A stretch of DNA of 64,000 nucleotides from a virus. A program made the position numbers and the translations under genes. The notes under the pieces were generated by a model, which saw nothing but the letters and a program-made list of their open reading frames with translations, was not told the origin of the DNA and did no database searches. The first letter of the stretch is position 1; each line of letters opens with the position of its first letter. This document shows positions 1 through 5,403 of the stretch, one piece after another. The stretch covers positions 1 to 64,000 of the IMG/VR virus record IMGVR_UViG_3300014502_000005; one strand, written 5' to 3'.

Positions 1-104
1 TAGCGGATTAAATAGTAATAACTTATCAAATTAGTAGAATGAATATAGAAAGCACAGAACTTCAAAACGGCACGGAAACCGCTATTGGTTATATACCCAA
101 CGTT
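1..104 (-). repeat. attC-like hairpin element, truncated by the window edge; opposite orientation to the 58 kb and 63 kb copies
   Basis: Inner stem TAGCGG/CCGCTA, ends ...TATATACCCA-AC-GTT; loop similar to the reverse complement of the 63060-63201 and 58366-58504 elements. Confidence 0.7.
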
Positions 105-378
105 AAATTAATTCCACTGTTTTGTATTTCAAAAAGTAAATCGCCTCATCGTCGTTAGGTGAAAATTCTAGTAATTCCAGATAGTCTAAAAAGTCTTTTC
201 TTTGGGGCCTACTCAATTCTTTAATAAGGTTCATACATTGAGTGTTTTGCCCGTTAATCTTTGAATTTAAAATGTGATTAAAATAATCGTCAGTACTTTT
301 AAATCCGTAGTCTGTTAGATCGTGTTTGCTTATCATATCAAAAAGTTTTAAGGATTGCAGTTTCAGGGAATAAATCAC
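103..378 (-). CDS. Hypothetical protein
   Basis: ORF in packed minus-strand cluster; its stop TAA lies in the AAC end of the attC-like element. Confidence 0.7.
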   Translation of the reverse strand: MIYSLKLQSLKLFDMISKHDLTDYGFKSTDDYFNHILNSKINGQNTQCMNLIKELSRPQRKDFLDYLELLEFSPNDDEAIYFLKYKTVELI

Positions 379-703
379 AACCTTTATTTAAAAGGTAGCG
401 TGTTTGTTTCCTGGCTTTAACTAGTTTAATAAATTCTTTTCCTTTTTCGGTAAGACAGTAAAAGTCATAATGTTCATATTCTATAAAATCAGTAGAATAC
501 CGGCATCCACCTATTCTTAATATAGAATACTCATAAGTCGAAATTTCAAGCGAAGGCAAAAGCTTCTCGGGTTCGTTTTTAAACTTATTCCAGATAATAG
601 AAGTTGGCAAAAGCTTTTCCATTGGGAATAAGGCTAAAACCTCTTTAATACAAATGCGATCTGCGTAACTTACTTTTCTCGATAATAAAGTTCGTGTTTT
701 CAT
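338..703 (-). CDS. Hypothetical protein
   Basis: 121 aa ORF in packed cluster. Confidence 0.7.
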   Translation of the reverse strand: MKTRTLLSRKVSYADRICIKEVLALFPMEKLLPTSIIWNKFKNEPEKLLPSLEISTYEYSILRIGGCRYSTDFIEYEHYDFYCLTEKGKEFIKLVKARKQTRYLLNKGCDLFPETAILKTF

Positions 704-876
704 TGTTTATATTTTTTAATGTACGAATCTGATACATAAATACTAGTATCCCTAAATTCAACTTTATAAACTAGTCCTTTGCTCCACTTCTCTATAGAAG
801 TGATTACCCCTAAATAATTTGGGCTGTCTTTGGTGGCCTTATCATTTGCCACAATGTCCCCTATTTGTGTTTTCAT
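700..876 (-). CDS. Small hypothetical protein (58 aa, MKTQIGDIVANDKATK...), not in ORF track
   Basis: Fills the gap exactly with ATGA overlaps on both neighbours. Confidence 0.7.
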   Translation of the reverse strand: MKTQIGDIVANDKATKDSPNYLGVITSIEKWSKGLVYKVEFRDTSIYVSDSYIKKYKQ

Positions 877-1223
877 TGTCCTGTATTTTTAATAGTAAAA
901 AAATCATTAATAAAAGAATTAAATATACCTATTGCTGAATTTTCATCTAATGAGTGAAAATTACATTTCCCAGAATAAAGATTGCCCGCATATTTTTGTA
1001 TGATTAGTTTTGCGCTTATTTCGTCTTCAAATCGGCAAAATATAGAGCATGCCTTCGAAAGGTTTGTATTTTTTTCCAAGTGAATAACTAATCGGCCATA
1101 TTGCTTAGACCTATATGTATAAGTATCTAATTCTCTCAGGTCGTTACTTTCTTGGAAATTATTTTTTATTAAGATGCTTTTAATTTGATTATTAAAAGCC
1201 CGAAACTTTTTTATGTTTTTCAT
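873..1223 (-). CDS. Hypothetical protein
   Basis: 116 aa ORF with ATGA coupling. Confidence 0.7.
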   Translation of the reverse strand: MKNIKKFRAFNNQIKSILIKNNFQESNDLRELDTYTYRSKQYGRLVIHLEKNTNLSKACSIFCRFEDEISAKLIIQKYAGNLYSGKCNFHSLDENSAIGIFNSFINDFFTIKNTGQ

Positions 1224-1492
1224 AAGTTGTCAGCTATAAAAGTTAAAGTGTCTTTTGGGATTAAATTAATATCCTTAATTTCTTTGCCCAACCAAGAAAT
1301 GTTTTTCCTAGCTTCTTGTACATAATGCTTAACGGTTGTTGTTACTTCGCCGCAATGTTGCCCAAAGCCTTGAGGCGCAAAAGGATATTCGTTAGCTGCC
1401 AATATTGTTCCGTCGTGAAGTATAGCCGTATACCGGTCAAAAGACCTGCCTTCGTTGTCAAATAGCCAGAAATGTTTTTTATTTGTTTTCAT
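1220..1492 (-). CDS. Hypothetical phage protein (DNEGRSFDRYT...PQGFGQH motif)
   Basis: 90 aa ORF; motif type recurrent in phage small-gene clusters. Confidence 0.7.
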   Translation of the reverse strand: MKTNKKHFWLFDNEGRSFDRYTAILHDGTILAANEYPFAPQGFGQHCGEVTTTVKHYVQEARKNISWLGKEIKDINLIPKDTLTFIADNL

Positions 1493-1563
1493 AAGAGTTA
1501 GTTTTAAATTGTTTATAATTAAGTTTCAATAAAATAGCCCTCTTTGTACGAACTTTGAACCGA

Positions 1564-2133
1564 CTAATTTATTTCATTCATTAATTCTAGCTCCTCATCT
1601 GTAAATAAGGCTTTTAAATTCATATACTCATCAACTGCAGAGTTATAAATTCTTTCATCTTTTTTACTATCGGTATTATAACCGAAATCAGAACAAAAGT
1701 TTTCAAACGTACCAGGATCATATTTTGTAAGACAGGCCAAAATATCATAATTGTTTGGTGCCTCCCTTTCGTGCTTAATAATGTTAATTGGATCATGCCT
1801 TATATCTAATCTATTTTTATTGAGTGTATAAATCTGTTCTATTTTGCGTTTTGCGTCGTCTTCACACACAAAGAAGTTATGAAGTATATTTAATTTAAAC
1901 TTAGCGTCTAAAGAGTAATAAACTGATTTTTTAAGAGATTGGCCGAACTCAAAAGAATAAACATATTCACCTCTTTTTAACATGATTTGATAAATATCAC
2001 GTGTCTCTTTTTCACCTTCAAAGTAACTATCATGTTTTAGATACCTAGCGACAAGGCTAGTTTTAGTTTTCTTTAAAAAGGTTAACGCTTGGTTTTCATA
2101 TTCGCTAATTCCTTTATTCTTTGTTGTTTTCAT
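1564..2133 (-). CDS. Hypothetical phage protein (YDILACLTKYDPGTFENFCSDFGY motif)
   Basis: 189 aa ORF. Confidence 0.8.
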   Translation of the reverse strand: MKTTKNKGISEYENQALTFLKKTKTSLVARYLKHDSYFEGEKETRDIYQIMLKRGEYVYSFEFGQSLKKSVYYSLDAKFKLNILHNFFVCEDDAKRKIEQIYTLNKNRLDIRHDPINIIKHEREAPNNYDILACLTKYDPGTFENFCSDFGYNTDSKKDERIYNSAVDEYMNLKALFTDEELELMNEIN

Positions 2134-2363
2134 AATTTTGAGTTATTAAGTTTACAATAAAAATTTTTAGCAGTTGAATTAATTTGTTCTTTTCTTAATT
2201 CCTGTAATTCCTGAAGGCTTTTACCTTTCAGTTTTAAAATCCAATAGTTTTTTGTTTTTTCTGGGAACCCTGAAATAAAGCTATGATATTCTAAGTATTT
2301 GGCACAATCATTTAAAAGTGCGTTTTGCTCTTTTGTTTGCTCAATGATTGATTGTATTTTCAT
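2130..2363 (-). CDS. Hypothetical protein
   Basis: 77 aa ORF with ATGA coupling. Confidence 0.65.
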   Translation of the reverse strand: MKIQSIIEQTKEQNALLNDCAKYLEYHSFISGFPEKTKNYWILKLKGKSLQELQELRKEQINSTAKNFYCKLNNSKL

Positions 2364-2367
2364 AATC

Positions 2368-2649
2368 TTATTTTTTATTAATTAATATCATCAAATCATA
2401 AATACAAGAGTAACCAGGGAATTTTTTATTGAAAGTTTTATGTATTTCATATGCGTACCAATCGCCGCGCCAGGGAAGATTTAATTGTTCTAAGCAAGTG
2501 ATCCGGCAGGTAGGTATTTTAATCATAATGTCATCGTCGCTAGTTTCAAAAGTGCCAATAAAAGTTTTTTTAGAATCCGTAAATTCTATCTGATAAAAAG
2601 AATTACCAGCGACACCATTTCTTTGGAATATCATTGACCTTATTTTCAT
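2368..2649 (-). CDS. Hypothetical protein
   Basis: 93 aa ORF (QRNGVAGNSFY...WRGD). Confidence 0.7.
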   Translation of the reverse strand: MKIRSMIFQRNGVAGNSFYQIEFTDSKKTFIGTFETSDDDIMIKIPTCRITCLEQLNLPWRGDWYAYEIHKTFNKKFPGYSCIYDLMILINKK

Positions 2650-2778
2650 AGTTTAGTTTTTTAGTTTGCTATAATAAAAGTACAATAATCTATTTTAAAA
2701 AAGAATGACTTTTGTCATGTTTTACAGCATTATTTTAAATAAAGTGTATGTTATAAAACATACACTTTATTAATTACT

Positions 2779-3201
2779 TTATAGTCTGATGCCTATTCCT
2801 ATTTTAGAATTTAAATTAAAGTCTACGTCTACGTTAAACGATAGTACTTTATTTAATTCTTTTAATATAGAGATACTTAACAGAACATTAGATTTTCTTA
2901 TCTGATCCTTATAGTCTATATAGTCGGCTCCAATAGAGAAGATAAGGAATTCTTCTTTTTTGTCTAATACTTTATAGCCTACTTGCAAGGAACCACGTTT
3001 AAATTCTGTATAACTACCAGAAAAATTAAACTCTCCTTTGTCAAAAGAAGGCGTTAGGTAAATAACCTTAGAACATGGAACATAAACCTTTAATCCAATT
3101 CCATTTAAAAATGGTGCATACGTAGGGGTTAAATAAACATTTTGGCCCCAAATAGAGAAACATCCGATAAGGATAACTGTTAATGTGATTAATCTTTTCA
3201 T
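2779..3201 (-). CDS. Exported protein, probable small outer-membrane beta-barrel
   Basis: Signal peptide MKRLITLTVILIGCFSIWGQ; amphipathic beta-strands; C-terminal IGIGIRL beta-signal-like strand. Confidence 0.55.
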   Translation of the reverse strand: MKRLITLTVILIGCFSIWGQNVYLTPTYAPFLNGIGLKVYVPCSKVIYLTPSFDKGEFNFSGSYTEFKRGSLQVGYKVLDKKEEFLIFSIGADYIDYKDQIRKSNVLLSISILKELNKVLSFNVDVDFNLNSKIGIGIRL

Positions 3202-3214
3202 TTTCTTTAGTTTT

Positions 3215-3271
3215 GATTAAGACAAGGCCTTTCGACCTTGTTTCGCTTAATTTAAAGCTCGTCAGTTAATC
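3215..3271 (-). ncRNA. Hammerhead ribozyme (type I)
   Basis: Minus strand GAUUAA-CUGACGA-GCUU(UAAAUU)AAGC-GAAA-CAAGGUC(GAAA)GGCCUUG-UC-UUAAUC: full catalytic core, stems I-III, GUC cleavage triplet. Confidence 0.9.
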
Positions 3272-3418
3272 TTTTACAATAATCAAAGCTGAATATTGAG
3301 TGAGGGCGTCCTGATATTTAATATCTATTAAATCTTCAGCCTCGTACTCTTTTAAAATGACATTTATTTCAGCTTCAAAATCAATCCCAATACTGTTTAC
3401 TACTAAAAAAGTTTTCAT
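3266..3418 (-). CDS. Small acidic hypothetical protein (50 aa, MKTFLVVNSIGIDFEAE...), not in ORF track
   Basis: ATG-TAA frame after an A-rich leader; stop codon is part of hammerhead stem I. Confidence 0.6.
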   Translation of the reverse strand: MKTFLVVNSIGIDFEAEINVILKEYEAEDLIDIKYQDALTQYSALIIVKD

Positions 3419-3442
3419 AATTTTTAATTTAATGATTAATAA

Positions 3443-3613
3443 TTAATTAGGATATATATAAAAAATCTTTTCCTCTAATTGTTTAGTCCCTGTATTTGTA
3501 ACATTAAATGCTATTTCTTCCCTTTTTTTAACTTGCTTTTTAAATAAGTAAAGCCAGTTATTTTCAGGTTCCGGGAAGTCTATATAATTAAGTTCAATGT
3601 CTATAGGTTCCAT
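3443..3613 (-). CDS. Small hypothetical protein (56 aa, MEPIDIELNYIDFPEPE...), not in ORF track
   Basis: ATG-TAA frame filling the gap between neighbours. Confidence 0.6.
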   Translation of the reverse strand: MEPIDIELNYIDFPEPENNWLYLFKKQVKKREEIAFNVTNTGTKQLEEKIFYIYPN

Positions 3614-3621
3614 AATTGTAG

Positions 3622-3822
3622 TTATTTAATTACATAACCATTATAAGTAAATTTTTCAACTGCAAAGCCAGCCCTGGTTATTTCACTAATAAATAGTTCC
3701 TCTTGCATAGACGCTATTTCATTCTCTAGTTTATCTACTGATTCAGCAGAACAACCCTCTAAATCGAATTGGTTTAAAATAAACTGAGCTATTTCTTTTT
3801 TTGTGTAAAGTTGAGTTCCCAT
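3622..3822 (-). CDS. Hypothetical protein
   Basis: 66 aa acidic ORF, first of the leftward cluster. Confidence 0.65.
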   Translation of the reverse strand: MGTQLYTKKEIAQFILNQFDLEGCSAESVDKLENEIASMQEELFISEITRAGFAVEKFTYNGYVIK

Positions 3823-4001
3823 GATTTCTATCGTTAGATTGTTTATATAAATATACGGAGTATTATAAAATATTGTACCCTAAAAATGGTGATATTCATC
3901 ACTAGTACTAGGTGATATAGATCACCTTTTGACATGACAAAAATCATGTTTTATGTTAAAATCTTGTTAATAACTTGTAATTCAGGTATGATTAAAATGA
4001 G

Positions 4002-4009
4002 TATATTTG
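4002..4009 (+). promoter_or_regulatory. Bacteroidota -7 promoter element TATATTTG
   Basis: TAnnTTTG 13 nt before the ATG at 4023. Confidence 0.65.
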
Positions 4010-4022
4010 TAATATAAAATAT

Positions 4023-4787
4023 ATGATTATGAAGACAAGTGTTGTAATGAAAAGTACTGACAGGCTATTATTTGGGACTGTAATTAGGCAAGAAACTAAG
4101 ACCGGAATGCTTAATATTTCCGATTTAGAAGCTATTGCGGCTAAAAGAAATGCTTTAAAAGATTATTCAATAAAGCATATTAGTGAATTAATTTCAAGAA
4201 AAGAAAATCTTGAACGTATTTTTTATATTATTAAAAAACAAGATATTATAAACGTAGACCTGTCTACTTTTATAGGTAATGTTGAAAATAAGGGTATTAC
4301 AACTACATTAAAATCATTAGGTATATGGAGAACATCTGGCGCAAGACACACTAAGACATCATGGGCCAATCCTTATATATGGATGCTTTTAGCATTAGAA
4401 ATGAGCCCAGAAATATATGGAGAAGCTGTTGTATGGCTAAGCGATCAATTAATAGTAAATCGTATTGAAGCTGGGAATATGTATAAAGGATTAACAGGAT
4501 CAATATCTAAATTTAAGGATGTTGATTACATCAAACTCGCAAAAGCTTTAAACTATATTGTATTTAATAGGCACGAGGCGGGTATTCGTAATTCAGCATC
4601 AATAAAAGAGCTAAAGGAACTTGAGCAATTAGAAAGGCAAATGGCGTTTTCGATTGATTTTGGATATATTAAAACTTTTGACCAGCTTATTTTGGACTTA
4701 CGTAAAATATGGAATGATAAATGGAATAACCATAAGTATTTATTGCAAAAGAATGATAAGTCGGGAATGCTAAAACATGCTCTTTAA
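4023..4787 (+). CDS. KilA-N-like DNA-binding/regulatory protein
   Basis: IRQETKTGMLNISDL and GARHTKTSWANPYIW motifs; C-terminal helical GIRNSA...EL..LE region typical of Bacteroidota KilA-N proteins. Confidence 0.65.
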   Translation: MIMKTSVVMKSTDRLLFGTVIRQETKTGMLNISDLEAIAAKRNALKDYSIKHISELISRKENLERIFYIIKKQDIINVDLSTFIGNVENKGITTTLKSLGIWRTSGARHTKTSWANPYIWMLLALEMSPEIYGEAVVWLSDQLIVNRIEAGNMYKGLTGSISKFKDVDYIKLAKALNYIVFNRHEAGIRNSASIKELKELEQLERQMAFSIDFGYIKTFDQLILDLRKIWNDKWNNHKYLLQKNDKSGMLKHAL

Positions 4788-5403
4788 CATATTAACAAGG
4801 AAATATTATCCACCAATGGTAGGCAAGTTTTAAAATATCGTCTTGTAGGTATGTTAAAAAACATGTTTTAGTATAAAAGAGTCAAAAATAATTTGTATAT
4901 TTGTATGACAAACAATAGGGTATCACAAATTGTGATCTTTAAATAAGAAGCCAGGGATAAAGTTAAGGCAATAGAAAGTAAAAAGGATTAAAGATAAAAC
5001 TAGGCAATAAGTAAAGTAAGGGACAAACAAAAGGGCGGCCCGGGAAGACAATAAAAGATATAGACATCTTATATTATGAAGCTAAAATAACTCAAATTAC
5101 CTTTATACAATAAGACATATAGACAACATACAAACTTCAATTAAAAATATCCTTTCCTTAACATGCTAAATAACATATTATATAAAGAACCTGTGCAAAA
5201 AATAAAAAAGTTGCACACTTTTGTTGCGCAAATTTGCACAAATATAATCCATAGTTAACGTAATAAACATACATCAAATACACAGGAAAGAGTAATAACT
5301 AGGAATAGGTATCAGAAAGTACTCTCAAATTAAAAGTACTTTGAAATTCAAAGTGGATTGTATAAAGATTTGGGGGTTAATTGACATCTAATCCCTCGTT
5401 CAA

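Follow-up and report, generated by a model that had tools for sequence, protein, structure and literature searches.

A predicted type I hammerhead ribozyme between two genes of a leftward phage operon

Reports of type I hammerhead ribozymes in phage intergenic regions date back to 2011 (PMC3088659), and such ribozymes are regarded as characteristic of bacteria and phages (PMC13725137). Several gene-flanking prophage hammerheads cleave both in vitro and in E. coli, and the role proposed for them is the cutting of long phage transcripts into gene-length mRNAs (Perreault 2011, PMC3088659); mRNA processing by self-cleavage is the standard, unproven hypothesis for phage hammerheads (PMC3088659; Weinberg 2019, PMC6765202). 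In the haloviruses HF1/HF2, the hammerhead HHphage is located 13 nt upstream of a start codon, and the 5' end of an HF2 transcript was mapped within 3 nt of its cleavage site, which shows that an element of this kind can set the 5' end of an mRNA in vivo (PMC3088659). In a fusarivirus, a short intergenic region is filled by a type I hammerhead whose helix III is long; it cuts 7 nt before the next start codon, and the resulting subgenomic RNA was confirmed by RACE (de la Pena 2026, PMC13725137).

This study considered a 64,000-nt window of phage DNA, corresponding to bases 1-64000 of a 76,236-bp IMG/VR record rated complete by CheckV, in which a hammerhead between two co-oriented genes had been predicted. 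The 57-nt element at 3271-3215 on the minus strand is by its motif a genuine type I hammerhead, for which cleavage is predicted. The statement in the original prediction that hammerheads occur in phage intergenic regions is borne out by the published cases (PMC3088659), and the element has a consensus core and a sense intergenic site between small variable phage genes in common with the prophage and phage hammerheads of Perreault 2011 (PMC3088659). Those examples often occur two or three to a locus and many are type II or pseudoknotted, whereas the element is a single type I hammerhead. Compared with HHphage, it is likewise positioned just upstream of a start codon, at 19 nt rather than 13 nt, but HHphage has a variant core needing high Mg2+ and precedes the first gene of an archaeal virus, whereas the present core is canonical and lies between genes (PMC3088659). 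The fusarivirus case is further removed, as it comes from a eukaryotic RNA virus, has a short or absent helix II and was proposed to act in cap-independent translation (PMC13725137). Overall, the element is a clean but ordinary example of an already known kind of phage ribozyme, with its exact job unproven. RiboJ-type insulators, in which a self-cleaving hammerhead upstream of the ribosome-binding site strips away the upstream context and defines a 5'-OH leader, are engineered constructs that join an extra hairpin to a type III hammerhead of satellite RNA origin; they provide a mechanistic analogy for the element and are not its relatives.

On direct reading, the core, stems I-III and the GAAA tetraloop that had been predicted were correct in every detail (Table 1). 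The core comprises C3 U4 G5 A6 N7 G8 A9, G12 A13 A14 and a non-G base at H17 (C17), and the core-adjacent pairs are all canonical (G3258-C3245 at 10.1-11.1, U3220-A3266 at 1.1-2.1 and A3241-U3222 at 15.1-16.1). Stems I, II and III have 6, 4 and 8 bp, respectively, with stem III counted to include A15.1-U16.1 and containing one U.G wobble; stem I is open and stems II and III are loop-closed, which is the topology of type I. At minimum free energy, the isolated 57-mer is predicted to adopt precisely the three-way junction (-15 kcal/mol, z -2.5), and no pseudoknot was found in the element by sequence inspection. The predicted cut, 19 nt ahead of the ATG at 3201, and the placement of the upstream stop codon within stem I were also confirmed. 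The motif is statistically significant: when both strands of the 64-kb window were scanned with a descriptor for the core, the A15.1-U16.1 pair, any base but G at position 17 and minimal stems, a single site was identified, compared with 0.01 loose matches per window in 300 dinucleotide-preserving shuffles, none of which had stems as long as those of the element.

Table 1. Features of the hammerhead locus in the 64,000-nt window, listed 5' to 3' along the minus strand. A1 is an alignment of the element with its relatives, in which the invariance of CUGACGA and GAA concerns positions already fixed by the search pattern; R1 is a covariance model of the relatives.
Feature	Position	Strand	Sequence or description	Basis
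Upstream 50-aa ORF	3266..3418	-	Match to Pfam Spore_Cse60	E 1.3e-4, 22.4 bits vs 20.7-bit cut-off
A at -1	3272	-	One A of the A.A cap that closes stem I	Conserved in relatives
Type I hammerhead, whole element	3215..3271	-	57 nt: GAUUAA CUGACGA GCUU-UAAAUU-AAGC GAA A-CAAGGUC-GAAA-GGCCUUG-U C UUAAUC	Sequence reading, MFE fold, descriptor scan, model R1
Stem I, 5' strand	3266..3271	-	GAUUAA; ends with the TAA stop codon of the 50-aa ORF (3268-3266)	
Core strand C3-A9	3259..3265	-	CUGACGA	Invariant in A1 except N7
Stem II hairpin	3245..3258	-	4 bp, 6-nt loop: GCUU 3258-3255, loop UAAAUU 3254-3249, AAGC 3248-3245	
Core G12 A13 A14	3242..3244	-	GAA	Invariant in A1
Stem III hairpin	3222..3241	-	A15.1 3241, CAAGGUC 3240-3234, GAAA tetraloop 3233-3230, GGCCUUG 3229-3223, U16.1 3222	Sequence, fold, covariation
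C17	3221	-	Predicted cut just after this base (3221/3220)	Hammerhead consensus position
Stem I, 3' strand	3215..3220	-	UUAAUC; would be the 5'-OH end of the downstream mRNA	
A at +1 past stem I	3214	-	Other half of the A.A cap	Conserved in relatives
Leader from ribozyme to ATG	3202..3214	-	A-rich, without a Shine-Dalgarno motif	Sequence reading
Downstream 140-aa ORF	2779..3201	-	Predicted small beta-barrel	Signal peptide, ESM Atlas model
Hairpin	2738..2771	-	15-bp perfect hairpin, 7 nt past the stop of the 140-aa gene	Fold -16.8 kcal/mol

Relatives of the element were retrieved with the pattern CTGANGAGCTT-N3-12-AAGCGAAAC, a pattern confined to the core and stem II and taken from the element itself; it matched at least 119 loci in viral contigs. 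Among the matches listed, 106 of 122 were complete type I hammerheads, and stem I reached 5 bp or more in 103 (84%); in a shuffled-flank control the completion rate was 1.7%, or 0.7% under the same stem I requirement. By eye, several of the other listed matches resembled type III hammerheads and a few were apparently inside coding sequence. The stem I of the element (GAUUAA/UUAAUC) is also present at L036, L103 and L112, where the stem III sequences are unrelated. In alignment A1, composed of the element and 39 unique relatives of the same subclass among the matches listed, covariation was demonstrated by double changes at all 6 pairs of stem I and at 3 of 5 pairs of stem III, amounting to 140 double-change cells versus 40 +/- 5 after shuffling within columns and 13-30 after sliding the partners by 1-3 columns. 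The members of A1 were chosen for pairing, and the shuffled-flank control is therefore the unbiased figure. Homology was demonstrated with model R1, built from the 39 viral relatives without the element, which matched the element over its full length (1-62) with 64.2 bits and an E-value of 3e-14, the relatives having been fished by the element's own core and stem II. The subclass represented by R1 has a 6-bp stem I, a stem II of the form GCUU-N5-AAGC and an A.A cap. Combined, the perfect core, three stems, covarying homologues and 64-bit score strongly support the original prediction of a hammerhead between two co-oriented genes.

Several features outside the catalytic core are held in common by these relatives. 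Stem I was 6 bp long in 49 of the 81 unique listed elements and 5 bp long in 25, and H17 was C in 72 and A in 9 of the 81 unique listed relatives. The base before stem I was A in 74 of 80 listed relatives and the base after it was A in 75 of 80; the element carries both of these capping adenosines (3272 and 3214). The A before stem I was retained in 42 of the 46 listed relatives whose stop codon lies elsewhere, indicating that it is structural rather than a by-product of the stop codon. In A1, the first U of loop II was invariant and the last U was present in 90%, with most relatives having a 5-nt loop of the form U-N-A-W-U. [quoted passage not shown] A contact of this sort is required for rapid cleavage at cellular Mg2+. 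Viewed more broadly, the matches (L004-L122 in viral contigs and L124-L243 in genomes) make up an abundant short type I subclass with a 5-6 bp stem I and conserved A.A, in which stem II takes one of two forms, GCUU-N5-AAGC or GCUUG-UGAGAYU-CAAGC.

The Rfam hammerhead models, which had been put forward as a check, aligned with the element and fell short in score. No hit was reported at the gathering score across the whole 64-kb window, and the hammerhead was visible to the models only with permissive filters. The RF00163 (Hammerhead_1) model aligned end to end over 3215-3271 with 21.6 bits against a gathering score of 34, and the best-scoring family, RF03152 (RAGATH-1), also aligned end to end with 31.3 bits against a gathering score of 56.3. 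The hammerheads at 16 related loci were likewise unreported by Rfam at the gathering score, indicating that the low score is a property of the models and their seed rather than of the element. RF00163 has the same topology and core as the element, and its seed is drawn mostly from other lineages with different stems and loops. RAGATH-1 resembles the element in its core, long stem III, 5-bp stem I and A-rich linker before stem I, but its stem II has 1 bp whereas that of the element has 4 bp. Additionally, the 5' hairpin of RAGATH-1 aligned to coding sequence with its pairs marked as non-canonical by cmscan. Membership in RAGATH-1 was rejected on the basis of this non-canonical hairpin, the stem II mismatch and the sub-gathering score; the alignment rests on the common core and stem III, and the element was therefore not filed there. 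As the gathering thresholds miss an abundant short type I phage subclass, routine annotation under-reports it. A search of the whole 76-kb genome with model R1 and the Rfam hammerhead families returned one site only, and with only one ribozyme present, circularisation or splicing of RNA by paired ribozymes was ruled out.

The intergenic placement of the ribozyme is conserved. A same-strand upstream ORF ends near the ribozyme in 76 of the 81 unique listed relatives, and a downstream ORF starts soon after it in 70 of the 81. The distance from the cut to the ATG has a median of 27 nt and an interquartile range of 23-33 among the listed relatives, compared with 19 nt for the element; at these distances the ribosome-binding region is always outside the ribozyme, so that no cleavage is required for its exposure. 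In approximately 76% of the 76 listed relatives in which an upstream ORF was detected, the stop codon falls within -7 to +7 nt of the start of stem I, measured from first base to first base; the commonest positions are -3 (UAA|stem) and -2 (UA|G of stem), and the full range among the listed relatives is -85 to +17. The element, with its stop at +3 from the start of stem I, shares this position with L016, L068, L086 and L112. Stop codons receive 0 mentions in Perreault 2011 (PMC3088659), where stop placement at the 5' edge is apparently undiscussed, and the combination of an A.A-capped, fixed 5-6 bp stem I with abutting upstream stop codons may be previously undescribed. This description of the subclass, together with its being missed by the Rfam thresholds, is a modest addition to what is known. 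The proteins encoded on either side are small and highly diverse, with 45 clusters among 59 downstream proteins and 59 clusters among 70 upstream proteins of the listed relatives; a ribozyme-associated gene family was therefore rejected, in line with Perreault et al., who likewise noted no link between the ribozyme and a particular gene family (PMC3088659).

Given this context, the element is very probably a type I hammerhead in the sense orientation of a leftward operon which, once transcribed, folds and cuts after C3221. Its most likely role would be to cut the leftward polycistronic mRNA just ahead of the small barrel-like gene. From hammerhead chemistry and the published prophage cases, a nascent leftward transcript, if the minus strand is transcribed, would be expected to fold into the three-way junction and cut itself. 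The upstream fragment would carry the 50-aa ORF with an intact stop codon, so that termination would be normal; its 3' end, structured by stems II and III and bearing a 2',3'-cyclic phosphate, should be degraded more slowly by 3' exonucleases. The downstream fragment would begin with 5'-OH-UUAAUC, continue through a 19-nt unstructured A-rich leader into the coding sequence of the 140-aa barrel-like protein and end near the hairpin at 2738-2771; the AU-rich, 6-bp stem I should dissociate readily after the cut. One polycistronic message would in this way become two RNAs with unlinked stability and translation, and expression of the barrel-like gene would be uncoupled from that of the four small genes upstream. 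The mRNA-processing hypothesis fits the geometry of the element as read from its sequence; what would be gained by cutting is not apparent from that sequence. By thermodynamic folding, the probability of the active fold in sequence context is low (0.03-0.07), and the relatives behave alike. With a canonical core, a stop codon inside stem I, a 19-nt leader and an end hairpin, the locus provides a clean single-copy test case, and this layout makes the role of bacterial and phage hammerheads, a long-open question, easy to test with a small reporter construct.

The position of the stop codon raises the alternative that the ribozyme is coupled to translation, in that a ribosome terminating on the upstream ORF would melt stem I and cover the CUGANGA strand, so that cleavage or product release is timed by upstream translation. 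Such translation could delay cleavage until the ribosome leaves, or could pull the cleavage products apart. In this copy the TAA constitutes bases 4-6 of stem I, and the proximity of the stop to the start of stem I noted above extends the arrangement to most of the listed relatives; with a stop in or beside stem I, a terminating ribosome must unwind the stem, making folding and termination mutually exclusive at that time. Furthermore, upstream coding sequence competes with the AU-rich stem I across the family, with the median active-fold probability falling from 0.41 for the ribozyme alone to 0.06 with 60 nt of upstream sequence and the element at the median, and clearance by a ribosome would alter this folding. 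However, back-to-back features are usual in compact phage genomes, the A preceding stem I has a structural role with which UAA or UA|G stops are merely compatible, stop positions range from -85 to +17, and the competitor helices of the element do not recur across the family (mean z -0.28 and -0.02). The placement of the stop is explained equally well by compaction and the structural A, and ribosome gating, which is speculation, is considered unlikely. If true, translation-timed cleavage would make the element a natural ribosome-gated ribozyme.

The competitor helices themselves were recorded as follows. The 8-base palindrome GATTAATC, the halves of which correspond to stem I, recurs at 3187-3194 in codons 3-5 of the downstream gene; these are the only 2 copies in 64 kb, and the downstream copy has a z of -2.5. 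Additionally, UUUGAUU of the upstream ORF (3289-3283) can pair with AAUCAAA (3218-3212) in competition with stem I (z -3.6). Their use as evidence for a switch was rejected, as they are unconserved in the family and the active-fold probability of the element is typical.

It is less probable still that the element is a relic or an inactive look-alike, which would not cleave at cellular Mg2+ and would serve only as a structured spacer or an RNA-stabilising hairpin. The Rfam scores under gathering are consistent with such a reading, as are a loop II of 6 nt versus 5 nt in most relatives and the fact that no loop-loop or pseudoknot contact is demonstrable from the sequence. Nevertheless, a 6-nt loop II is also present in L068 and L085, all core positions of the element are consensus and its core-adjacent pairs are canonical, and the retention of 11 invariant core bases in hundreds of diverged phage copies, together with covarying stems, is what selection for catalysis predicts. 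Least probable is that the stem III hairpin terminates antisense (plus-strand) transcription with an incidental likeness to a hammerhead: a simple scan does flag an 8-bp stem followed by a T-rich tail at 3220-3243 (+), but the call is weak (5 such sites versus 2.0 +/- 1.5 expected), the core, stems I and II and the family are left unexplained, and the stem III sequences of the relatives are unrelated and often without a T tail on the opposite strand, such that family conservation has effectively already refuted it.

At the N-terminus of the downstream 140-aa protein, MKRLITLTVILIGC forms a signal peptide in which LIGC resembles a lipobox. The model of this protein in the ESM Atlas has a pTM of 0.73, reaches a TM of 0.85 to PF13505 (OMP_b-brl) clusters, some of them from tailed phages, and resembles eight-stranded small outer-membrane barrels. 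A comparison of the protein with 5.8 billion clusters returned only the self-match, and no relatives of either flanking protein were found in viral contigs. The earlier label of putative outer-membrane protein thus holds for the predicted fold, which is barrel-like, and stands without sequence relatives; in this model-based form it is a reasonable fold-level lead and not a homology result. A phage-encoded outer-membrane protein would recall lysogenic-conversion genes. Spore_Cse60, the family matched by the upstream 50-aa ORF, is named from Bacillus sporulation, which is odd for a phage with Bacteroidota-type signals; the match is probably weak or due to chance. The hairpin beyond the 140-aa gene has a z of -4.6, a value equalled by 0 of 200 shuffles; U is frequent in its 3' arm and in the bases that follow, and a 129-nt gap separates it from the next gene. 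This hairpin probably acts as a terminator or 3'-end structure, possibly in both directions. With a ribozyme cut at the 5' side and a strong hairpin at the 3' side, the downstream gene would be bounded on both sides.

The operon consists of 13 tightly spaced ORFs (103-3947), all on the minus strand and divergent from a plus-strand gene at 4023. Within the operon no further ribozymes or structures were found, and the gap at 1493-1563 was unstructured. Sigma-70-like promoters occurred at chance level (30 versus 27 +/- 6 expected), as did the Bacteroidota-type motif TTTG-N17-23-TAnnTTTG, none of which lay near the operon. The window has a GC content of 32%, and the phage has a recognisable large terminase, portal protein and endolysin; a blastn search of 2000-5000 against GenBank phages gave no match. 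All of the listed sequencing runs containing its DNA were permafrost or peat DNA metagenomes, and contigs from four runs containing part of it yielded, over 2300-4100, short fragments only, either identical to the window or unrelated. Shine-Dalgarno-like motifs precede only 5 of the 53 phage ORFs of at least 100 aa, and the leaders are A-rich. Leaders that are A-rich and poor in such motifs are typical of Bacteroidota, and the host is probably a member of this phylum. The narrow subclass pattern gave 0 matches in 185,579 species genomes, and the general pattern matched 120 loci in cellular genomes, with 32 of 121 matches being complete type I hammerheads. The subclass members in cellular genomes were found mostly in Flavobacteriales MAGs with leaders lacking Shine-Dalgarno motifs, in agreement with a Bacteroidota host.

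Two further arrangements were observed among the retrieved loci. In L120 (902-960 and 1461-1520), L059 and L095, two core matches approximately 560-670 nt apart bracket a small gene. The first of the paired matches, like those in L015, L040 and L053, is by eye a type III hammerhead, with the order UUGCUGUC, hairpin I, CUGAUGA, hairpin II and GAAACAGCAA. Separately, ten Flavobacteriales MAG loci (L137, L140, L165, L168, L173, L179, L206, L220, L241 and L242) have a near-fixed stem I, AATACT/AGTATT, and a variable stem III, followed by an A/T-rich leader and an ORF beginning ATGAAAAA; these loci may represent one conserved locus or one mobile element.
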